A stretch of DNA of 64,000 bases from an uncultured Gammaproteobacteria bacterium (GTDB lineage Bacteria; Patescibacteriota; Patescibacteriia; UBA11705; JABHMO01), in the NCBI GenBank assembly GCA_964362205.1, contig CAYIDA010000005.1, positions 1 through 64,000 of the forward strand. The letters run 5' to 3'. The notes beneath the pieces were generated by a model. The model ran no database searches and was not told where the DNA came from. It saw only the letters and a program-made list of their open reading frames with translations. Below, one piece after another: positions 6,140-53,089 of this stretch. Both the position numbers and the translations under genes were made by a program. The first letter of the stretch is position 1. Every line of letters starts with the position of its first letter.

Positions 6140-6149
6140 GTTGTAAGGA

Positions 6150-6423
6150 TTGACAGCGTTGTATATAGTTTAATCTATAGATTCAATGAATATTCCGACA
6201 AATTGGTTTATCGCAGTTCTCCGAAGGGTTACTTTTTGACGCCCTGCACCAGTCGCTACGCCTGCCTGCGCGGCAGGGCTCCGGTGCAGGGCAAGCCAAA
6301 AGAGTTCACCTTTACCGTGAATTCGACGAAGGAGTGGTTTACGGCCAGACCCCGTGAAATGCAATGTAATCACGATAAACTATTAAATAAGTGGTTTCAT
6401 TATAAAACGTAAACAACGTTGGC
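6150..6423 (+). repeat. ~250-bp TIR-flanked structured element, copy A (candidate ncRNA or MITE). It is paralogous to 24520-24772 on the opposite strand.
   Basis: GC-rich island in AT-rich DNA. The ends AGCGTTGTATATAG (left) and AAACAACGTT (right) form an inverted repeat. The conserved 5' block is aatctatagattcaatgaatattccgacaaattggtttatcgc and the conserved 3' block is ccagaccccgtgaaatgcaatgtaatcac. The internal 9-bp stem is ccctgcacc...ggtgcaggg. Two six-frame ORFs called here are rejected as compositional artefacts. Confidence 0.6.
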
Positions 6424-22429: not shown

Positions 22430-22463
22430 GTTGCATTTATCTGTAGATTTGGTAAGCTATTAA

Positions 22464-22603
22464 GGGCTACAAATTACAAATCGTACAAATGTTACAAATT
22501 ACGAATTGTACGAATGTAATGTTGTGAATGGATTTGAAGTGGATTGGTAAGATTTGTATTATCTGTAATTTGTAACATTTGTACGATTTGTAATGTGTAA
22601 CGA
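22464..22603. repeat. Inverted-repeat leader (family F2: gctacaaattacaaatcgtacaaat words), copy a
   Basis: Left arm gggctacaaattacaaatcgtacaaatgttacaaattacgaattgtacgaatgtaatg. Right arm ttgtattatctgtaatttgtaacatttgtacgatttgtaatgtgtaacg. Confidence 0.75.
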
Positions 22604-23811: not shown

Positions 23812-24036
23812 ATGAAAAATCTACACTTAACAAGCTACATAGAAAAAGACGAAGATGGTGTGTTTATTGGATCTATACCGGCTATTCCCAGTTGCTATGC
23901 TCAAGGAAAAACTCAAGAAGAAATGCTGAAAAATTTAAATGAGGTTTTACGGCTTTGCCTGCGAAACACCAGTCAAGGAAATTTGAGGAGAACCAAATTT
24001 ATAGGCATACAGAATATAGAAATTTCCTATGCCTAA
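23812..24036 (+). CDS. hicB: HicB-family (UPF0150) antitoxin
   Basis: LTSYIEKDEDGVFIGSIPAIPSCYAQGKTQEEMLKNLNEVLRLCL matches the UPF0150/HicB pattern. The ORF opens at GTG 23788. The first ATG is at 23812. Confidence 0.7.
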   Translation: MKNLHLTSYIEKDEDGVFIGSIPAIPSCYAQGKTQEEMLKNLNEVLRLCLRNTSQGNLRRTKFIGIQNIEISYA

Positions 24037-24253
24037 ATTGGTTCCAATTAAACCAAAAAGGTTAATAAAAATCATACTCGGTTTAGGCTTCAGACAACGT
24101 GATGCCGAAGGCTCGCATATTTTTTTTCGCCATCTCGACGGTCGAACCACGGTTATTCCAATACATGCTAACGAAATCAGCAGAGGTCTTTTGAGAAAAA
24201 TTTTGAACGATGTTCAGTTGTCAATTGAGGAATACGATGTCCTGAGAAAATAA
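24029..24253 (+). CDS. hicA: HicA-family mRNA interferase toxin
   Basis: MPKLVPIKPKRLIKIILGLGFRQRDAEGSHIFFRHLDGRTTVIPIH is the HicA/YcfA fold. It overlaps hicB by 8 nt. Confidence 0.75.
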   Translation: MPKLVPIKPKRLIKIILGLGFRQRDAEGSHIFFRHLDGRTTVIPIHANEISRGLLRKILNDVQLSIEEYDVLRK

Positions 24254-24463
24254 GTTATGGTTTATTGCGATGCGTGTTATTGACGAAGAAATATATTTTT
24301 AGTACAATTAAAGTGTTCAAGAAATTGGGTCAGCTACCAACTGATTAACCGTCCACCTTCGCATAAAGCTCCGGTGGATCGGTTGAACCAATGTTTTGAT
24401 GAATTAAGAGCTCTGGAATCTGATTTTCCGGAGAACTTGGGTGGGACCCCCCGCAATTTGTGG

Positions 24464-24497
24464 GGCCCAAGGCATAGAGCCTTGGGTTTTTGTTTTA
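24464..24497 (+). terminator. Rho-independent terminator on the + strand
   Basis: Stem cccaaggc / gccttggg with loop atag, followed by tttttgtttt. It lies ~210 nt after the hicA stop. Confidence 0.7.
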
Positions 24498-24519: not shown

Positions 24520-24772
24520 AGCGTTGTATACATTTTTACCCTTTAACACTCTTATTTGATTTACGGTGATTACGTTGCATTTCACGGGGTCTGGGGTGAA
24601 CTCTTGCCACTTTCAGCACCACGAAAGATGATAGAACCACGCAATTGTGAACCCCAGCGCTTTTGCCTACTTTTGGCGTCAAAAGTAGGTCTGCGAAGCA
24701 TCGCGATAAACTAATTTGTTGGGATATTCATTGAATCCATAGATTAAACTGTAAACAACGCTACCAATTCTT
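24520..24772 (-). repeat. ~250-bp TIR-flanked structured element, copy B (paralogue of 6150-6423; minus-strand orientation)
   Basis: The reverse complement aligns with copy A. Both 5' blocks read agtttaatctat(a/g)gattcaatgaatat(t/c)cc(g/a)acaaatt(g/a)gtttatcgc. Both 3' blocks read ccagaccccgtgaaatgcaa(t/c)gtaatcac. They share ttttgacgcc and agagttcacc. The TIRs are AGCGTTGTATACAT and GTAAACAACGCT. Confidence 0.6.
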
Positions 24773-24791
24773 ACAAATAAGTCTTAATTTT

Positions 24792-26591
24792 ATGAACAAC
24801 AATTTAGAAACAATGCGTCATTCACTTAGCCACGTCATGGCGCAGGCAGTGCTTAAATTTTTTCCTGATGTGAAATTAACGATCGGCCCCCCGATTGACA
24901 ATGGCTTTTATTATGATTTTGATTTAGGCGAAAAATCTTTTACGAAAGATGATTTGAAAAGAATTGAAAAAGAGATGAGAAAAATTGTCAGAGAAGATCA
25001 AGCGTTTGAACAGTTTTCGTTGTCAGCAGAAGAAGCGCTCAAAAAACTGGCGGATAATCCGTATAAACAAGAATTGATCGAAGAGCTTGTTAAACAAGGA
25101 GAAACTCAAATTAGTTTTTACAAAAACATCAACAAACAAGGCGAAATTGTTTTTGAAGATATGTGCCGCGGACCGCACCTTGAATCAACGGGCGGGGCTG
25201 GCGCGTTTAAACTGCACAAACTGGCCGGCGCGTATTGGCGCGGAGATGAGAAAAATAAAATGTTGCAAAGAATATACGCCCTGGCGTTTGAAACCGAGGA
25301 AGAGATTGAAAAATATTTGATTCTGCTCGCGGAAGCGGAAAAAAGAGACCACCGCGTCATCGGCAAAGACTTGTTTTTGCTTGATCCGCAAGTTGGCATG
25401 GGTCTCGCCATGTGGAAACCAAAAGGCGGCCAACTTTGGCGCACGATTGAAGATTTTTGGTATAAAGCGCATCTTGATAACGGTTATGAACTGGTTCGTT
25501 CTCCGCATATCGGCAGCCGCGCTTTGTGGGAGACGAGCGGCCACTGGAATTTTTACAATGACAGCATGTATCCGGTGCTTGAAGTCAGTAAATCACTCAA
25601 AGAAATGCAGACCGGCGCAGTGGTTGATCGCCCGAAAGAAGAGTATTTATTAAAACCAATGAACTGCCCGTTCCATGTTCGGCTTTATAAATCAGAGAAA
25701 TGGTCATATCGCGATTTGCCATTGCGCTGGGCGGAATGCGGCACGGTTTATCGTTACGAAAAGTCCGGCGAATTGTCGGGACTAACTCGCGTGCGCGGAT
25801 TTACGCAGGATGACGCGCATATCATTTGTTCAAAAAAACAAGTTGAAGAAGAATTGAAACGCGTGGCCAATTTCGTTAAATATATTTTTGATACGTTCGG
25901 TTTCAAGGATTATAAAATTTATTTATCCCTTAGTGATCCGAACAATATGAGTAAATATGCCGGCGACAAAGAGGGTTGGCAGTTTACAGAAACGGTTTTA
26001 GAAAAGGTGGCCAAGGAATTGGGCATTCCTTATGAAAAAGAAATCGGCGAAGCGGCGTTTTACGGACCGAAACTGGATTATAAAGTGAAAGACGCGCTGG
26101 GGCGCGAGTGGCAATGTTCTACTTTGCAGTTTGATTTTAATTTGCCGGAACGTTTTGATATGACTTTCACCAATGATGAGGGACAAGAAGAACGGCCATA
26201 CATGTTGCATCGAGCTTTGTTTGGTTCGTTTGAAAGATTCATGGGATTGCTGATTGAACATTACAGCGCGGCTTTTCCACTGTGGCTTTCGCCGGTGCAA
26301 GTAAAAGTCTTGTCGGTTTCGGAAAAATTCAATGATTATGCCAGTGAAGTGGTGTCTGCTCTCAAAAAGAAAAGCATCAGGGTTAAGTTGGCTGATGATG
26401 GCGATTCATTACCCAAGAAAGTTCGCAACGGAGAAAAAGAAAAAATTCCTTATCTTTTAGTTGTTGGAGAAAAGGAAGTCGCTGATAGAACGGTCGCGGT
26501 CAGAAAACGCGGTCAAGGCGATCTTGGACCGCAAATATTGGCTGATTTCGTTGAGCTTGTTTCACGAGAAAACGAAGAGCGAGTAATTTAA
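24792..26591 (+). CDS. thrS: Threonyl-tRNA synthetase
   Basis: N-terminal HSLSHVMAQAV (second additional domain), class II core and anticodon-binding domain. 599 aa. Confidence 0.95.
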   Translation: MNNNLETMRHSLSHVMAQAVLKFFPDVKLTIGPPIDNGFYYDFDLGEKSFTKDDLKRIEKEMRKIVREDQAFEQFSLSAEEALKKLADNPYKQELIEELVKQGETQISFYKNINKQGEIVFEDMCRGPHLESTGGAGAFKLHKLAGAYWRGDEKNKMLQRIYALAFETEEEIEKYLILLAEAEKRDHRVIGKDLFLLDPQVGMGLAMWKPKGGQLWRTIEDFWYKAHLDNGYELVRSPHIGSRALWETSGHWNFYNDSMYPVLEVSKSLKEMQTGAVVDRPKEEYLLKPMNCPFHVRLYKSEKWSYRDLPLRWAECGTVYRYEKSGELSGLTRVRGFTQDDAHIICSKKQVEEELKRVANFVKYIFDTFGFKDYKIYLSLSDPNNMSKYAGDKEGWQFTETVLEKVAKELGIPYEKEIGEAAFYGPKLDYKVKDALGREWQCSTLQFDFNLPERFDMTFTNDEGQEERPYMLHRALFGSFERFMGLLIEHYSAAFPLWLSPVQVKVLSVSEKFNDYASEVVSALKKKSIRVKLADDGDSLPKKVRNGEKEKIPYLLVVGEKEVADRTVAVRKRGQGDLGPQILADFVELVSRENEERVI

Positions 26592-30019: not shown

Positions 30020-30166
30020 GGCTACAAATCATGGCTACATATTACAAATCACTACGAATTTACGAATAGAACTAAAACGTATGAAGAGCGAAACGAAAGA
30101 ACAGTCTAAACCGATTTGCCTGCCCGCGCAGGCGGGTAAATTTGTAGTGATTTGTAATTTGTAGCA
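30020..30166. repeat. F2 inverted-repeat leader, copy b. It forms a perfect long hairpin and ends 5 nt before the ATG at 30172.
   Basis: Left arm ggctacaaatcatggctacatattacaaatcactacgaattt. Right arm aaatttgtagtgatttgtaatttgtagcaaac. The centre contains the gcccgcgcaggcggg hairpin. Confidence 0.75.
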
Positions 30167-30171
30167 AACAT

Positions 30172-30747
30172 ATGCAGGAAAAAATAGTTTTCGCGCCATA
30201 TGATCGCATAGTAAAGTTTTTTTTACCGATCATTCCGAAAAAGCTAAAACCGAATCAGCTGACTTTTTTCAGGTTGATATGTTCGCCGTTACTTATCGGA
30301 CTTTTGGAAACAAAAGAATATACGATTGCTTTGATTTTTTTTGCGATTTTGGCGATAACGGACATGCTGGACGGCTCGCTCGCGCGGCTACGCAATCAAG
30401 TCACGGAATGGGGAAAAATTTGGGATCCGATCGCGGATAAATTGTTGATTGGTACAGTGGTCGTGGTTTTGTTACTTAAAATAAACTTGAGTTTAACGAT
30501 TTTTCTTTTGGCTTTTGAATTGGCTTTTGTGCTCGGCGGCGCGTTCCATAAAATCGGGGAAAACGGCAATCACGCCTTGCAGGCCAATATGTGGGGCAAA
30601 ATAAAAATGAATTTACATTGTTTTGGCGCGGGGCTCTTGATTCTGGGGGTTATTATGGATCACAACATGCTGACCTTTGTCGCCGAAATTTTATTTTATC
30701 TCAGCTTGTTGTTCGCGGCCGTAAGTTTAATTAAACGCGGCGTGTAG
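30172..30747 (+). CDS. CDP-alcohol phosphatidyltransferase family protein
   Basis: DMLDGSLARLRNQVTEWGKIWDPIADK (D-x2-DG-x2-AR...G-x3-D-x3-D motif) and TM segments. Confidence 0.8.
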   Translation: MQEKIVFAPYDRIVKFFLPIIPKKLKPNQLTFFRLICSPLLIGLLETKEYTIALIFFAILAITDMLDGSLARLRNQVTEWGKIWDPIADKLLIGTVVVVLLLKINLSLTIFLLAFELAFVLGGAFHKIGENGNHALQANMWGKIKMNLHCFGAGLLILGVIMDHNMLTFVAEILFYLSLLFAAVSLIKRGV

Positions 30748-30890
30748 GTTAGTTGATAATTAACCTAATTATTCTAATTATTTTAATTGACCTAAATAAT
30801 AGCCAAATAACAATAACCAAAAACTATTTTATGTTTGGGATTTCGGAATTCGAAATTATTTAGAATAATTAGAACAATTAGGTCAATTAT
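30748..30890. repeat. AT-rich inverted-repeat leader (family F4: taattagg / cctaatta words), copy b
   Basis: Left arm ttgataattaacctaattattctaattattttaattgacctaaataat. Right arm ttagaataattagaacaattaggtcaattatcg. Sister copy at 251-400. Confidence 0.65.
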
Positions 30891-34657: not shown

Positions 34658-34763
34658 TCGTATTAAACAACCTTGTCTTTCTTAAAGACAGGGTTTTTTG
34701 TTTTAATCGTAGTTATTTAGTGTGAGTTTGCTTCGAGGTTTTCCTGAAGGAAAGTTTGAACAG

Positions 34764-34880
34764 GGAAGGTTGAGGAGGTCAGGAGATCGGCGAAGCCGAC
34801 AAGCCGTTAAGGTTTCTAAAATCCTGTTCATGTCGGAATAGGGTTGGGCATGGGCGGTAAGATGTTTTTGTTTATAAAAC
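34764..34880 (+). repeat. GC-rich structured element family F5, diverged copy 1
   Basis: Begins GGAAGGTTGAGGAGGTC and ends tgtttataaaac. GC-rich in an AT-rich intergenic region. Confidence 0.55.
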
Positions 34881-34894
34881 GTTTAGAGTATAGT

Positions 34895-35074
34895 TCAGCT
34901 GATTTTTTTGTTTAAAAATGGAAGGTTGAGGAGGTCGATAGACCGACGAAACCGACCGCCCGTCAGGGCATCTCAACCCCCTCCACGTCGGAACGGGGAG
35001 GGGGCAGGCTTGCCCAGTACTTGCGCGAAGCAAATAGTGCTGGGGGGTGGGGCGCAGTCCATGTTTATAACACT
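34895..35074 (+). repeat. GC-rich structured element family F5, copy 2 (candidate ncRNA or leader upstream of rfbB)
   Basis: Nearly identical to 52696-52887 over ~170 nt: ggaaggttgagg(a/g)agtcgatagaccgacgaaaccgaccgcccgtcagggca...ggcaggcttgcccagtacttgcgcga(a/t)gcaaatagtgctggggggtgggg. Internal hairpin ttgc-gcgaa-gcaa. A six-frame ORF called here is rejected. Confidence 0.6.
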
Positions 35075-35164
35075 TTGTTTGGAGTCACTTTTTATTGTTG
35101 ACAATCAATTTGCCAGAAATATATTAAACAGGTAAGATATTCTCGATCAAAAGATTACTAAATT

Positions 35165-36211
35165 ATGAAATTACTCGTAACCGGCGGTGCCGGTTTTATC
35201 GGTTCAAATTTCATTCGGCATATTTTGAATAAATATCCGTACTATTTTGTTATTAATCTTGATAAACTGACTTACGCCGGCAATTTGGACAATTTGAAAC
35301 AGTTTGAGAGTCATCCGAATTACAAATTCGTTAAAGGAGATATTCTGAACTCAGAATTAATTGAGCATGTCGCGGCTGATGTTGATATTATTGTTCACTT
35401 TGCCGCTGAGACGCACGTTGATCGTTCGGTTCTTGATCCGTTTTCTTTTGTGAAAACCAATGTCCTCGGCACGCACGTTCTGCTTGAAGCCGCGAGAAAA
35501 TTAGGCAACAAAAGATTTCATCATATTTCCACTGACGAAGTTTTCGGTTCTTTGCCGCTTGAGGATACGCATCGTTCATTTCACGAAGAAACGCCGTATG
35601 ATCCGAAGAGTCCGTATTCATCATCAAAAGCCGCGTCCGATCATTTGGTTCGGGCGTATTATCACACTTATGGTTTGCCGATTACGATTTCCAATTGTTC
35701 AAATAATTATGGACAGTTTCAATTTCCGGAAAAAGTGATTCCGCTTTTCATTACCAATTTACTGGAAGGGAAAAAAGTGCCGCTTTACGGAGATGGAAAA
35801 AATGTACGTGATTGGATTCACGTGGAGGATCATTGCGAAGCAGTGGACGCGATTATTCACAAAGGAAAAATCGGCCATACTTATGTTGTTGGCGCTGATT
35901 GCGAGAAAACAAATTATGAATTGACCATGACGATTTTGAAACATTTGGGACATGGCGAAGAAATGATTGAATTTGTGAAAGACCGTCCGGGCCATGATCG
36001 CCGCTATGCTATGCGTTCGCACAAAATTCAGGCAGAACTCGGCTGGAAACCGAAATACAATTTTGAAGATGGTATGCGCCAAACCATTGATTGGTATGTG
36101 GCAAACAAAGATTGGTGGCAGAAAGTGAAGTCAGGGGAGTATTTGAAATATTATGACGAGTGGTACGGAAGTCGGCTACAAATTACGAATCGTACAAATG
36201 TTACAAATTGA
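35165..36211 (+). CDS. rfbB: dTDP-glucose 4,6-dehydratase
   Basis: MKLLVTGGAGFIGSNF... SDR-family with YxxxK. 348 aa. The last ~12 codons are encoded by the left arm of an F2 repeat. Confidence 0.95.
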   Translation: MKLLVTGGAGFIGSNFIRHILNKYPYYFVINLDKLTYAGNLDNLKQFESHPNYKFVKGDILNSELIEHVAADVDIIVHFAAETHVDRSVLDPFSFVKTNVLGTHVLLEAARKLGNKRFHHISTDEVFGSLPLEDTHRSFHEETPYDPKSPYSSSKAASDHLVRAYYHTYGLPITISNCSNNYGQFQFPEKVIPLFITNLLEGKKVPLYGDGKNVRDWIHVEDHCEAVDAIIHKGKIGHTYVVGADCEKTNYELTMTILKHLGHGEEMIEFVKDRPGHDRRYAMRSHKIQAELGWKPKYNFEDGMRQTIDWYVANKDWWQKVKSGEYLKYYDEWYGSRLQITNRTNVTN

Positions 36212-42578: not shown

Positions 42579-42881
42579 ATGAATCCACAGGAAATAATCA
42601 ACGAGAACATTATTGCTGCTTTGGGTCTGCAATCATTGCCCCTTGAAAAGAAGCAGGAGGTTTTGAACAAATTGGTTGAATTGGTGCAAAAAAGAATTAT
42701 GCTCCGAGTTATGGACGGTTTGTCAAAAGAGGATGGCGAGAAAATGGCTGAACTCGAAAAAAATCCAATGGCCATGCTGGCGTTTATCGCGGAAAAGTTT
42801 CCGAATTTTGAGGAAATCGTGAAAGAAGAAGTTGAAAAAGTAAAAGAAGAAGCGCTGGCTGCGGCTGAACAAGTCAATTAA
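42579..42881 (+). CDS. Small acidic hypothetical protein
   Basis: 100-aa ORF. The stop is immediately followed by an F2 repeat. Confidence 0.55.
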   Translation: MNPQEIINENIIAALGLQSLPLEKKQEVLNKLVELVQKRIMLRVMDGLSKEDGEKMAELEKNPMAMLAFIAEKFPNFEEIVKEEVEKVKEEALAAAEQVN

Positions 42882-42993
42882 TGGCTACAAATTACAAATC
42901 ACTACAAATTTACAAATAGACAAAAGAATGTATGAACAAAAGAACAGTCTAAACAGATTTGTAAATTTGTAGTGATTTGTAATTTGTAGCAAC
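42882..42993. repeat. F2 inverted-repeat leader, copy d (perfect long hairpin), ending 1 nt before the ATG at 42995
   Basis: tggctacaaattacaaatcactacaaattt ... aaatttgtagtgatttgtaatttgtagcaac. Confidence 0.75.
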
Positions 42994-42994
42994 T

Positions 42995-43180
42995 ATGAGC
43001 ACAGACACAAAAAAGCAAGAGTTGATCGCCAAGATGCGGCTGGCTTATGATGAGTTCGTTAAATATGTTGAAGCGCTTGAAAAAGAGGGTGATGTTTTGT
43101 TGCATCAGCATATTCAGAAGATTGAAAAAGAAAAGATTGATCAAGTGTTAAAAAATATTCAAAATATCGGCTCAAAATAA
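42995..43180 (+). CDS. Small coiled-coil hypothetical protein
   Basis: 61-aa ORF. It has the same start-codon context (F2 right arm 'tttgtagcaa' then ATG) as two recognisable genes (CDP-alcohol phosphatidyltransferase at 30172 and pyrG at 50965). That raises its plausibility. Confidence 0.5.
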   Translation: MSTDTKKQELIAKMRLAYDEFVKYVEALEKEGDVLLHQHIQKIEKEKIDQVLKNIQNIGSK

Positions 43181-49193: not shown

Positions 49194-50456
49194 ATGAATA
49201 ATAACTTTAACGCAGAAGCAACGAAGCAAGGAAGTAAAAAAACAAAGAAAAAAAAGGGAAAGGTTTTTTATGTTTTTATATTTTTAATTTTTATTTTTAT
49301 TGTTTCTCTTTCTGGTTTTACGGTAGGAAAATTTTCTGAAGGGAAAATAACGATTAAGGGTAATCCGACTTTGTATAAAGAAACAAAATTAACCGAGTTG
49401 TTTGACAATAGTTTGGTCGAACAAGCGTGGACGATTTTGAAGAGCGATTTTGTTGATCAAGGAAAACTGGATGAAAAAGAAATGTTCTATGGAGCCTTGA
49501 AGGGTTTTGTGTCAGCCGCAGGTGATCCTTATACGGTTTTGTTTGATCCGCAAACCGCCAAGGAATTCGAAGACCAAATCGCCGGCGCGTTCGAGGGAAT
49601 TGGCGCGGAAATCGGATTGAAAGAAGGAGTGGTTGTGGTGGTGGCAGCTCTGCCGGATAGTCCGGCGTCAAAAGCCGGTCTCATGTCCGGCGATAAAATT
49701 TTCAGTGTTGACGCTAAACAGGTGACTGGCATGAGTTTGGATAAAGTTGTTCGAATGATTCGCGGAGCGAAAGGAACAAATGTTTCCTTGATTATTGTTC
49801 GCGGTGATGAAGAGCCAAGAGAGGTAGTGATTACGCGTGACGTAATTGAATTGAAGAGTATTAAATGGCAGTTTCGTGATGATGGGATTTTAAAAATTGA
49901 TTTAATGGCTTTCAATGTTGATACAACGGATTTGTTTATGCAAATCGTCAAAGAGGCAAAAACGAAAAATCCAAGAGGGATTATCTTGGACTTACGGAAC
50001 AATCCTGGCGGTTTGCTTGATACGGCGCTTGATATTGCTTCAGCTTGGGTGCAAACTGATTTAGTGCTTATAGAGAAATTCGGAGATGGTCGGGAGATTG
50101 CTTACAATGGTTCGAAAAACGCATTTTTCAAGGGACTGCCGACGGTTGTTCTGATAAATCAAGGCAGTGCTTCCGGCTCGGAAATTGTAGCCGGCGCGCT
50201 TCAAGATTATGGCTTGGCCAAAATCGTCGGGCAAAAGAGTTTCGGCAAGGGATCAGTGCAAGCAGTGAAAAAGCTTTCCGACGGTTCATCACTCAAAGTT
50301 ACGATCGCCAAGTGGTTGACGCCAAAAGGCCGCAGTATTAATGACGAAGGTATTAAACCGGACATTGAAGTTAAATTCACCAAAGAAGATTTTGATCAGA
50401 AAAAAGATCCGCAATTGGACAAAGCGATTGAAATATTATTGAAAAAAGATAAGTAA
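49194..50456 (+). CDS. ctpA: Carboxyl-terminal processing protease (S41) with PDZ domain
   Basis: N-terminal TM segment. PDZ region GVVVVVAALPDSPASKAGLMSGDKI. S41 motifs ILDLRNNPGG and INQGSASGSEIVAGALQD. Confidence 0.9.
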   Translation: MNNNFNAEATKQGSKKTKKKKGKVFYVFIFLIFIFIVSLSGFTVGKFSEGKITIKGNPTLYKETKLTELFDNSLVEQAWTILKSDFVDQGKLDEKEMFYGALKGFVSAAGDPYTVLFDPQTAKEFEDQIAGAFEGIGAEIGLKEGVVVVVAALPDSPASKAGLMSGDKIFSVDAKQVTGMSLDKVVRMIRGAKGTNVSLIIVRGDEEPREVVITRDVIELKSIKWQFRDDGILKIDLMAFNVDTTDLFMQIVKEAKTKNPRGIILDLRNNPGGLLDTALDIASAWVQTDLVLIEKFGDGREIAYNGSKNAFFKGLPTVVLINQGSASGSEIVAGALQDYGLAKIVGQKSFGKGSVQAVKKLSDGSSLKVTIAKWLTPKGRSINDEGIKPDIEVKFTKEDFDQKKDPQLDKAIEILLKKDK

Positions 50457-50463
50457 AAATTTT

Positions 50464-50910
50464 ATGAAAATTCTCTTGATTAAACACTTAGAATCATTAG
50501 GCCGCAGAGGAGAAATAAAAAATGTCGCAGAAGGTTACGCGAGAAATTTTTTATTGCCGGGGAAATTTGCGGTGGTGGCCAATGAAGCGAATGTAAAGAA
50601 ATATGCTAATATCGAAAATCAGGTTGAATCGAAACAGGTTAATAAAAAATTAAAAACTCCGGAGGAAATCGCGGCGCGGCTTCGCACGATATCAATCGTG
50701 TTGGCGGAAAAAGCGGATGACAGTGGAACGTTATTCGCCGGCCTTACCAAAGAAAAACTGGTTCAATTGCTCGCGGCCAAAGGCATTGATTTAAAAACAA
50801 AACAAATTGATTTGGCGGAACCAATAAAGAAGATCGGTGATTATAGAATCGGAGTGAATATCAGCGCCAGTTTCAAAAGTGAATTTCGGGTTTCAATAAA
50901 AAAAAATTAA
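50464..50910 (+). CDS. rplI: 50S ribosomal protein L9
   Basis: MKILLIKHLESLGRRGEIKNVAEGYARNFLLP matches the L9 N-domain. 148 aa. Confidence 0.9.
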   Translation: MKILLIKHLESLGRRGEIKNVAEGYARNFLLPGKFAVVANEANVKKYANIENQVESKQVNKKLKTPEEIAARLRTISIVLAEKADDSGTLFAGLTKEKLVQLLAAKGIDLKTKQIDLAEPIKKIGDYRIGVNISASFKSEFRVSIKKN

Positions 50911-50964
50911 AATTTGTATAATTCGTAATTTGTAACATTTGTACGATTTGTAATTTGTAGCAAT
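50911..50964. repeat. F2 half-element (right-arm type only) filling the rplI-pyrG spacer, ending 0 nt before the pyrG ATG
   Basis: aatttgtataattcgtaatttgtaacatttgtacgatttgtaatttgtagcaat then ATG. Confidence 0.7.
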
Positions 50965-52611
50965 ATGTGCAAGTTTATTTTCGTGGTCGGCGGAGTGATG
51001 AGCGGTGTTGGCAAAGGAGTGGCCGCTGCTTCCATCGGCCGGATTTTGCAGAGCAAAGGCTATCGCGTTTCCGCGATTAAGATTGACCCATATATCAATA
51101 TTGACGCCGGCACCATGAATCCCACGGAGCACGGCGAAGTTTTTGTCACAGAGGATGGAGATGAGACTGATCAAGATATTGGCAACTATGAACGCTTTCT
51201 AAATCAGAATATATATTCCGATAACTACATGACCACCGGCCGAGTTTACCAAACAGTAATCGAGCGCGAAAGAAATCTCGGCTATCATGGAAAATGCGTG
51301 GAGGTGGTGCCGCATATTCCCGAGGAAATTATTCGTCGCATAAATAACGCGGCCAAGAAGAGCGACGCTGAAATAATGATGGTGGAAATCGGCGGCACGG
51401 TCGGTGAATATCAAAACCTGTTATTTTTGGAGGCAGCGCGCATGATGAAGATGCAGAATTTTCATGATGTGCTTTTTATTTTGGTTTCTTTTTTGCCGGT
51501 GCCGGGAAAATTGGGAGAAATGAAAACCAAACCAACGCAATATGCGATTCGCACTTTGAATTCCGCCGGCATTCAAGCTGACTTTGTCCTGTGCCGCGCC
51601 GAGCAAGCGATTGACAAAGAACGTAAACAAAAAATTGCCGTGAATGGCGGTTTGTTTCCGGATCATATTATATCCGCGCCGGACGTTGATTCTATTTATG
51701 ATATTCCGGTTAATTTTGAAGCAGAACATTTGGGTGAAAAGATTTTGAAACAATTCGGTTGGAGCCCGCGTCAGATCGGCGGACTTGAGGAATGGAAAGA
51801 GTTCGTGATGAAAAGCAAATCAGCGCAGAAAATAGTTAAAATCGGTATCTGCGGAAAATATTTTAAAACCGGTGATTTTGTTTTAAAGGATTCATACATT
51901 TCTGTGATTGAGGCGATCAAACACGCGGCCGGCGTAAATGATGTTAAGACGGAAATACAATGGCTGAACGCAGAAGTTTACGAAGAAGACGCTTCAAAAC
52001 TGAGAGAGTTGTCACAGTTTGACGGAGTGATTGTGCCGGGCGGTTTTGGCGGACGGGGGGTGGAAGGAAAAATTAATGCTATTCGTTATTTGCGAGAGAA
52101 TAAAATTCCATTTTTCGGGCTTTGCTACGGATTGCAATTAGCGACGATTGAATTTGCCAGGAATGTTTGCGGATTAACGGACGCGACTTCTGAAGAAATC
52201 AATTCGAGCGCCAGTCATCAAGTGATTCATATCATGCCTGACCAAATTCAAAATATTGATCAGAAGAAATACGGCGCGACCATGCGTCTCGGCGCCTACC
52301 CCTGTGTTCTCGACGAGCGTTCGATTTGTTATCAGGCATATGGCGAAAAACAAATATCCGAGCGCCACCGCCACCGCTATGAAGTTAACAATTATTATCG
52401 CGATTTAATGGAACAAAAAGGATTGATGTTTGCCGGCTTGTCGCCTGATCGGCGTTTGGTGGAAGCGATTGAATTGCCCGGACATCCGTTTTTCGTGGCC
52501 ACGCAATTTCATCCTGAATTTAAATCAAGACCAATTGTCGGGCACCCGCTATTTAATGCGTTTATTAAAGTTTGCCTTAATAAATATGAACGAGAATTTA
52601 ATAGTAGATAA
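50965..52611 (+). CDS. pyrG: CTP synthase
   Basis: MCKFIFVVGGVMSGVGKGV... synthetase domain plus a GATase-1 domain (GLCYGLQ). 548 aa. Confidence 0.95.
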   Translation: MCKFIFVVGGVMSGVGKGVAAASIGRILQSKGYRVSAIKIDPYINIDAGTMNPTEHGEVFVTEDGDETDQDIGNYERFLNQNIYSDNYMTTGRVYQTVIERERNLGYHGKCVEVVPHIPEEIIRRINNAAKKSDAEIMMVEIGGTVGEYQNLLFLEAARMMKMQNFHDVLFILVSFLPVPGKLGEMKTKPTQYAIRTLNSAGIQADFVLCRAEQAIDKERKQKIAVNGGLFPDHIISAPDVDSIYDIPVNFEAEHLGEKILKQFGWSPRQIGGLEEWKEFVMKSKSAQKIVKIGICGKYFKTGDFVLKDSYISVIEAIKHAAGVNDVKTEIQWLNAEVYEEDASKLRELSQFDGVIVPGGFGGRGVEGKINAIRYLRENKIPFFGLCYGLQLATIEFARNVCGLTDATSEEINSSASHQVIHIMPDQIQNIDQKKYGATMRLGAYPCVLDERSICYQAYGEKQISERHRHRYEVNNYYRDLMEQKGLMFAGLSPDRRLVEAIELPGHPFFVATQFHPEFKSRPIVGHPLFNAFIKVCLNKYEREFNSR

Positions 52612-52695
52612 AGAGTTTTGATGGAGCTTGTTCGGAGCGATTGGACAAAAGTCAATTTAAAAATCATAAATAGATTTCAGGATAATTAGACTGAT

Positions 52696-52887
52696 TTTTT
52701 TTGTTTTAAAATAGAAGGTTGAGGGAGTCGATAGACCGACGAAACCGACCGCCCGTCAGGGCACCTCAAACCCCCTCCACGTCGCCCTTCGAGTACCTCA
52801 GGGTGACAGGAGGAGGGGGCAGGCTTGCCCAGTACTTGCGCGATGCAAATAGTGCTGGGGGGTGGGGTGCGGTCTTGGTTATAAAAG
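52696..52887 (+). repeat. GC-rich structured element family F5, copy 3
   Basis: Close paralogue of 34895-35074, including the shared upstream gatttttttgtttaaaa(t/a)(g/t)(g/a) context. A six-frame ORF called here is rejected. Confidence 0.6.
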
Positions 52888-53089
52888 TTTTAGTTATTCG
52901 TCAGGCTGACAATAAATAAATCCTGCCAATATTCGTAGCCGTTTTTGAAATGTTTTTTCAAGCCGCATTTCTTCTGGAAATAATTTAACCAACGCTCATT
53001 ATTCATAATATTATTAATCTTGAGAGGAACACTCATCTTGGCTAAAAGTTTGAGGGGTCTTTATTAAACTGTTTATTTTACGAAAAATT

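Follow-up and report, generated by a model that had tools for sequence, protein, structure and literature searches.

Three copies of a GC-rich, hairpin-forming element, a candidate family of small structured-RNA genes, in intergenic DNA of a groundwater Patescibacteria genome

A groundwater Patescibacteria genome carries three plus-strand copies of a GC-rich, hairpin-forming element of ~100 to 165 nt, located in two gene gaps within the 64-kb stretch of DNA analysed here (referred to below as the window). The three copies are real, and we interpret them, with a probability of about 0.45, as an orphan family of genes for small structured RNAs, restricted to one species, whose number has recently grown through duplication or through insertion into intergenic DNA near terminators, and not as a cis-regulator of rfbB. 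Among the interpretations offered in the initial annotation, a small noncoding RNA gene family is viable and is the best reading, with folding that favours one strand and helices that are kept in the most diverged copy. The best named matches of the rfbB and pyrG products, which are encoded next to the element, are Candidatus Falkowbacteria proteins.

Copies c1 and c2 lie in tandem within the 507-bp gap between a gene for a 745-aa MshEN-domain protein and rfbB, and c3 lies in the 478-bp gap between the convergent genes pyrG (plus strand) and a DUF6938 gene (minus strand). A profile HMM and a covariance model, both used with filters off, find exactly three copies in the 64 kb, confirming the plus-strand positions at which they had originally been noticed. 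Copy c1 (34763-34859) is a short form consisting of a 5' domain and the hairpin P5, and lacks the P6 domain and with it the 3' third of the long form. Copies c2 (34919-35059, including a G-rich tail at 35045-35059) and c3 (52712-52875) are long forms with the same helices. Each core is followed by an AT-rich 3' flank on the same strand: 34860-34893 for c1 (GTTTTTGTTTATAAAACGTTTAGAGTAT; similar to the c2 and c3 flanks, as read from the sequence), 35060-35089 for c2 (CATGTTTATAACACTTTGTTTGGAGTCAC), and 52876-52899 for c3 (TTGGTTATAAAAGTTTTAGTTATT).

The two long forms had been described as nearly identical, upstream context included. This holds for two ungapped blocks, of 79 nt (92% identity) and 63 nt (95% identity), and for ~32 nt of AT-rich upstream context common to both, whereas the full blastn alignment of 201 columns with indels is 81% identical (E = 5e-51). 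The differences between c2 and c3 consist of 10 substitutions, one 1-nt indel, and one replacement at a hairpin tip, where a c3-specific 28-nt segment (52784-52811, plus strand) stands in place of the 7-nt GGAACGG of c2, a net change of +21 nt; this segment forms its own hairpin (GUCGCCCU/AGGGUGAC) that lengthens P5. Copy c1 is indeed a diverged tandem duplicate, with 73% identity to c2 over 85 nt (blastn, E = 1e-7) and a covariance-model score of 110 bits. Two features attributed to all copies have narrower distributions: the common start GGAAGGTTGAGGAGGTC is present in c1 and c2, but c3 reads AGAAGGTTGAGGGAGTC, and the GCGAAGC mini-hairpin is found only in c2, with GCGATGC in c3 and the whole 3' domain absent from c1. 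Likewise, the GC shift ascribed to the 507-bp gap belongs to the cores and not to the gap as a whole, which at 0.43 is about the genome mean. The core values are 0.52 (c1), 0.64 (c2) and 0.63 (c3), and the c2 and c3 cores stand out as the two top GC peaks anywhere in the window, reaching 0.69 and 0.67 where the window as a whole has 0.418. Structural RNA genes in AT-rich genomes are classically marked by high GC content.

The element is present in two assemblies of this species obtained independently from the Hainich aquifer: L037, which is 99.5% identical to the window, covers c3, and L040, which is 99.97% identical, covers c1 and c2. The copies are identical in both, and the element is therefore not an assembly artefact; because assemblies this similar have zero differences inside the elements, the strain comparison is uninformative on constraint. 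As a separate matter, L037 departs from the window at 53 positions, and 48 of these fall within a 166-bp tract (49541-49706) inside an S41 peptidase gene, a hypervariable or recombined segment.

Each copy folds better as plus-strand than as minus-strand RNA, an asymmetry that arises because of G.U pairs. The minimum free energies are -29.9 versus -13.3 kcal/mol for c1, -69.6 versus -58.4 kcal/mol for c2, and -78.1 versus -69.7 kcal/mol for c3, and the plus-strand z-scores are -1.9, -3.8 and -3.5, respectively. The 5' domain is organised around GGUUGAGG, which has two mutually exclusive partners that are both kept in all three copies. Paired with a local AACC, it forms a 13-position rod with two tandem G.A/A.G steps and a tetraloop cap; paired with CUCAACC ~40 nt downstream, it closes a three-way junction holding helices P2 and P4. 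Nearest-neighbour energies favour the rod over the junction by 2.4 to 8.4 kcal/mol, and a U-to-C change in c3 converts a G.U to a G-C pair in the GGUUGAGG/CUCAACC helix. The strand that pairs in two ways is at 34768-34775 in c1 (a candidate helix with 34794-34797 as local rod or with 34815-34823), at 34924-34931 in c2 (with 34950-34953 as rod or with 34971-34978), and at 52717-52724 in c3 (with 52764-52772 or the local partner).

The remaining helices, all on the plus strand, are retained to different extents. P2 is GGUC/GACC (34933-34936/34941-34944 in c2) and becomes GGUC/GAUC in c1, where the candidate helix is at 34777-34780/34785-34788. P4 is GCCC/GGGC (34958-34961/34966-34969 in c2; 52751-52754/52759-52762 in c3), with one G-C replaced by A-U in the c1 candidate (34802-34805/34810-34813). 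P5 is CCCCCUCC/GGAGGGGG in c2 (34979-34988/34993-35002) and c3 (52773-52782/52808-52817), and is kept as a candidate helix in c1 (34824-34833/34838-34847) through a C-G to U-A change, a C-G to G.U change, and three wobble changes. Only the long forms carry P6, a bulged hairpin (8 bp plus 4 bp) located at 35013-35024/35030-35044 in c2 and at 52828-52839/52845-52859 in c3. The diverged c1 thus retains P2, P4 and P5 together with both partners of GGUUGAGG. When the c2/c3 alignment is read against the c2 fold, none of the 10 substitutions falls in P4, lower P5 or P6, and the single pair-breaking substitution is at the base of P2. In the three-sequence alignment 93% of cells are paired, versus 38-57% after the 3' partners have been shifted by 1-3 columns, and four pairs have changes on both sides; these counts come from three sequences of one species, two of them near-identical, with the structures derived from the same sequences, and the statistical power for covariation is accordingly almost nil. 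A secondary structure conserved on one strand, as expected of a stand-alone small RNA gene, is weakly indicated by these three sequences.

Similarity to known RNAs was sought with the covariance models of Rfam 15. Across the whole window at gathering thresholds, tRNA-Gln alone is reported, and at E-values up to 10 the matches at both loci are at chance level and lie outside or antisense to the cores; the best of these low-stringency matches, at 25.6 bits, is to the terminator part of L10_leader and falls on the terminator of the upstream gene. The first-pass statement that no known riboswitch is recognisable is borne out, with no family matched at either locus. Scans of the IMG/VR viral (three patterns, one of them a 17-mer), GTDB species genome (two patterns) and JGI metagenome (one pattern) collections, which require an exact match to the pattern, gave only chance matches (judged by reading the flanks and by nhmmer), and no match was found in phage and plasmid records by blastn. 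A full-text literature search returned no description of native regulatory or small RNAs, or of similar elements, in Patescibacteria.

Relatives were retrieved by synteny through rfbB, pyrG, L9 and CDP-alcohol phosphatidyltransferase. This recovered the same species twice, with identical copies, and several relatives, all of them element-free. The gap upstream of rfbB, 507 bp here, is 117 bp in L010 (91% rfbB identity), 210 bp in L013 (83%) and 18 bp in L015 (82%), and the element is absent from it in all three by blastn, nhmmer and covariance model. Downstream of pyrG the 478-bp gap compares with 36 bp in L027 and 58 bp in L039 (92-93% pyrG identity), and in L029 (91%) an unrelated 348-aa gene occupies the c3 site. 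Both loci are thus empty in every relative examined, where flanking proteins are 82-94% identical, a pattern of insertion polymorphism which indicates that the copies are recent, lineage-specific additions. Searches of ~92 kb of close-relative DNA by nhmmer and covariance model found no copy, where roughly four would be expected at the density of the window (three per 64 kb), suggesting that the family is either confined to the species or evolving too fast for recognition.

The flanks of the cores share several sequence words. The AT-rich 5' flank of c2 (34887-34918, plus strand) is homologous to that of c3 (52680-52711, plus strand), and in both the order is a -10-like hexamer (TATAGT in c2, GATAAT in c3), (C)AG(C/A)CTGA, a T-run, and GTTTAAAAT; the last of these reads GTTTAAAAAT at c2 and GTTTTAAAATA at c3. 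A 3' flank of GTTTATAAAA-GTTTAG type is common to all three copies, and each core is bordered by words resembling GTTTAAAA and GTTTATAA. Exact matches to the 13-mer TTTTTTGTTTWAA number three across the whole window: one in the host terminator tail ahead of c1, and one in the 5' flank of each of the two long forms. The empty site of L010 reads TTTTGTTTATAA. Occurrence of the 13-mer at the three element loci, together with the form of the empty site, suggests that the element either targets terminator tails or carries the tail along on duplication. Candidate flanking direct repeats are GTTTAAAAA/GTTTATAAC at c2 and GTTTTAAAA/GGTTATAAA at c3; 6-7 of the 9 positions agree, the surrounding DNA is AT-rich, and words like GTTTATAAAA are frequent across the window (25 matches). 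An inverted-repeat search of both loci found internal hairpins only and no terminal inverted repeats.

By position c1 and c2 are upstream of rfbB, as the initial annotation put it, but both are also upstream of the predicted rfbB promoter. An 11/12 promoter-like site, TTGACA-16-TATATT, is called by consensus scan at 35098-35125 (plus strand), between c2 and the rfbB ATG at 35165, and because this predicted promoter lies downstream, the element would not be in the rfbB 5' UTR. The downstream part of the promoter-like region, ATTAAACAGGTAAGATAT, is conserved in the element-free L010. The intrinsic terminator of the 745-aa MshEN-domain gene, with a 12-bp stem and the tail TTTTTTGTTTTAA, is at 34669-34706 (plus strand), before c1. 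The consensus scan called no canonical promoter upstream of c1 or c2, and its best call upstream of c3 is a 9/12 site; the -10-like hexamers that open the shared 5' flank are aligned between c2 and c3. No intrinsic terminator or U-tract is called after any of the three copies, and none is called between c3 and the stop codon of pyrG (52611), a place where L027 carries a bidirectional terminator hairpin. Beside rfbB neither a terminator nor an SD-sequestering platform was found.

Sites complementary to the 5' 16-mer of the element are absent from the window at up to 3 mismatches (<=3), so no target is in sight. The 64-kb window encodes no transposase, reverse transcriptase, Y1/RAYT protein, recombinase, Cas protein, or TnpB- or IscB-like protein. 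A 48-aa ORF on the minus strand (52890-53036) adjoins the c3 3' flank and was annotated as a gene in L037; database searching recovers nothing but the ORF itself, on two contigs of the same species, and it belongs to no Pfam family.

Other repeats and features of the window were recorded in the course of the analysis. A second intergenic repeat, family B, is unrelated to the c1-c3 element and occurs at 6141-6400 (plus strand) and 24540-24776 (minus strand), and at a different location in L029 (1505-1801); its arms are conserved (82% over 96 nt, 91% over 35 nt), its GC-rich centre is variable, and it has no Rfam match. The second copy, B2 (~250 nt), is inserted in the opposite orientation after the T-box terminator tail GTTTTTGTTTTAA and before the thrS start codon (ATG at 24792); L010 is without this insert. 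The c1-c3 element and this copy of family B are both beside terminators, which suggests that gain of intergenic elements there is a habit of this genome. The T-box leader itself (24307-24472, plus strand) reaches 31 bits (E = 4e-5), below the Rfam gathering score of 93, and is conserved in L010. A HicB/HicA-type toxin-antitoxin pair (23813-24255, plus strand) lies in the 1-kb gap before thrS, is absent from L010, and is called in L040 as UPF0150 and HicA_toxin. Arrays of TACAAAT/TACGAAT heptamers at 22457-22600, 30022-30177, 36166-36211, 42875-42995 and 50908-50984 give rise to long inverted repeats of AT-rich sequence immediately at the ends of genes, rfbB (3' end) among them, and resemble a repeat family of REP or terminator type. 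AATTAnnnn arrays with a 9-bp period (AATTAGGTT AATTAGTAT AATTAGGTC), at 247-400 and 30758-30889 upstream of two genes, share 79-88% similarity and may represent iterated binding sites. An 848-aa protein (13208-15754, plus strand) matches Pfam MVP_shoulder (1e-26) and Vault_3 (4e-11), a major-vault-protein-like product in a Patescibacteria genome; its gene is followed by one for an NYN-domain nuclease (15888-16409), and this region has no NCBIfam or PADLOC match.

Several specific identities for the element were considered and rejected. It is not a tRNA or tmRNA, since tRNA-Gln is the only ARAGORN find, and an 11-nt match, ACCGCCCGUCA, to the 16S decoding region is missing from c1 while rRNA models are silent, which removes an rRNA fragment. 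Template and variable repeats of a diversity-generating retroelement (DGR) do not apply, as c2 and c3 do not differ specifically at adenines and neither a reverse transcriptase nor a target ORF is present. The segment UUGAGGA-[GGUC GAUA GACC]-GAC-GAAA is similar to a hammerhead ribozyme core, but has U for C3 and three extra nt before GAAA; c1 has GAAG, there is no Rfam match, and the CUGANGA plus GAAA core is not formed. An HDV-like fold is set aside as its P2 partner is misplaced, and a CsrA sponge as c2 has 4 GGA motifs where ~3.7 are expected from base composition. Pairing with the 48-aa ORF as a type I toxin-antitoxin system is rejected since that orphan ORF is seen in this species alone, encodes a non-hydrophobic product and has no counterpart beside c1 and c2.

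The main rival to a family of RNA genes, which we regard as a serious possibility though an unlikely one, is a selfish non-autonomous DNA repeat, MITE-like or REP-like, that has no RNA function and inserts or copies itself beside T-rich terminator tails, its hairpins acting at the DNA level or being leftovers. Absence of the element from both orthologous sites would fit such a repeat equally well, and the presence/absence polymorphism at both loci, the near-identical pair 18 kb apart, the confinement of TTTTTTGTTTWAA to element loci, the GTTTAAAA-like and GTTTATAA-like words around each core, the presence of other intergenic repeat families (family B between the T-box leader and thrS, and the TACAAAT palindromes), and the lack of a homologue outside the species in the collections searched all point in the same direction. 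Other observations argue against it. The element is not a classical MITE because it has no terminal inverted repeats, so that the GC-rich MITE suggested at the outset survives only in the loose sense of a recent repeat absent from orthologous sites. The flanking direct repeats are ambiguous, with 6-7 matching positions out of 9 in an AT-rich setting where GTTTATAAAA-like words are common, and genes for a transposase, reverse transcriptase or Y1/RAYT protein are missing from the window. The strand asymmetry of folding comes from G.U pairs, of which a DNA cruciform would have no need, and helices are retained in the diverged c1. At the c3 locus the excess over L027 (478 versus 36 bp) is much larger than one element, and so this is not a clean insertion. 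An origin in the RNA of a mobile element is quite improbable. The element would then be a scaffold or guide RNA left behind as an orphan, or a fragment from one end of the mobile element; the candidates are TnpB or IscB omega RNAs, IS110 bridge RNAs, retron msr-msd RNAs and group II intron domains. Such RNAs are resembled in the ~150-nt size, the GC-rich multi-hairpin fold, the multiple copies and the lineage-specific insertion, and the arrangement of P6, with a lower helix, a 3' bulge, an upper helix and a loop, is that of intron domain V. As read from the sequence, however, P6 is without the AGC catalytic triad of domain V, c2 and c3 differ by no variable guide-like segment, families of HEARO, group II intron and retron type give no Rfam match at E up to 10, and nuclease, recombinase and reverse-transcriptase genes of this kind are absent within the 64 kb.

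The remaining alternatives assign the element a role in the expression of neighbouring genes or a coding function. Transcription running on from the gene upstream (pyrG in the case of c3, the MshEN-domain gene in that of c1 and c2) could in principle make it a 3'-end or inter-cistronic structure for processing, stabilisation or termination, and this improbable reading draws on the absence of a called terminator between pyrG and c3 where L027 has its bidirectional hairpin, on the co-orientation of every copy with its upstream gene, and on the lack of a convincing promoter for the element itself. Against this, a canonical 12-bp terminator with a T-tail precedes c1 and c2, a U-tract follows no copy, and, since 35 of the 45 genes assigned from the window ORF list are on the plus strand, co-orientation is what chance would give. 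A riboswitch or leader family, in particular a tandem riboswitch or 5' leader controlling rfbB (dTDP-glucose 4,6-dehydratase), had been among the original candidates and is now contradicted, to the point that we consider it very improbable. It is true that c1 and c2 are upstream of and co-oriented with rfbB in the 507-bp gap and that the alternative pairings of GGUUGAGG are conserved and switch-like. The consensus scans, however, place the 11/12 promoter downstream of c2 and a terminator before c1; rfbB homologues at 82-91% identity have element-free gaps of 117, 210 and 18 bp; c3, between convergent genes, is upstream of no co-oriented gene; and no expression platform adjoins rfbB and no Rfam family matches. 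Least credible of all is a small protein, for which TTG-start ORFs overlap c2 (34908-35135, 75 aa) and c3 (52719-52919, 66 aa) in the mechanical ORF list: the reading frame is not conserved, the frames of c2 and c3 diverging after ~17 codons through a +1 indel and that of c1 reaching an early stop after 25 codons, and the translations are low-complexity Arg/Pro/Gly sequence.

We therefore return to the family of small structured-RNA genes. Its proposed unit would comprise an AT-rich 5' flank (the -10-like hexamer, T-run and GTTTAAAAT), the GC-rich core, and an AT-rich 3' flank beginning GTTTATAAAA. On the plus strand the core would form a 5' domain with the two-way pairing of GGUUGAGG followed by a G/C-rich hairpin P5 of variable length, to which the long form of c2 and c3 would add the bulged hairpin P6 and a G-run tail. 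Transcription of the units may start in the shared 5' flank or reach them as read-through, and the RNA would act in trans, as a base-pairing or protein-binding small RNA. A bolder version, which is a more speculative and doubtful proposition, is that the element represents an undescribed class of structured small RNA in Patescibacteria, with no Rfam relative, that spreads as its own gene unit into DNA close to terminators and has a 5' domain toggling between the tandem-G.A rod and the three-way junction; it would then be either a trans-acting or protein-binding riboregulator or a stand-alone RNA responsive to a ligand.

Among known systems, the element resembles multicopy sibling small RNAs—LhrC1-5 of Listeria, the tandem PrrF1/PrrF2 of Pseudomonas, and Qrr1-5 of Vibrio—in having paralogous copies both in tandem and dispersed, as with the tandem LhrC1-5 copies and those elsewhere in Listeria, and in being intergenic, roughly 100-200 nt long, lineage-restricted, and furnished with conserved hairpins. 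Those families have mapped promoters, Rho-independent terminators, known regulators and targets, and genus-wide conservation, whereas the element is without a convincing promoter or terminator and is absent even from relatives with 91-94% identical housekeeping proteins. It also resembles the pneumococcal BOX and RUP, Neisseria Correia, Rickettsia palindromic, and enterobacterial REP/BIME and ERIC elements, which are short non-coding multicopy units that vary in presence between close relatives, insert beside gene ends, and are foldable when transcribed. Repeats of the latter kind are bounded by terminal inverted repeats or consist of one long palindrome, and there are usually tens to hundreds of them, in both orientations; the element differs in having no terminal inverted repeats, a multi-hairpin fold favoured on one strand, a GC content far above that of the genome, and three known copies, all on the plus strand. 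With tandem riboswitches (glycine and other tandem aptamers) it shares two head-to-tail structured units upstream of a metabolic gene and alternative pairings in the 5' domain, but it is not conserved with the gene, has a third copy without a downstream gene, and matches no known aptamer class.

The value of these findings is mostly corrective, in that an rfbB riboswitch annotation should be avoided. The element also shows the gain, by this genome, of intergenic elements beside terminators. If it is transcribed, a structured, self-duplicating RNA family would offer a first handle on RNA-based regulation or genome plasticity in the reduced genomes of Patescibacteria.
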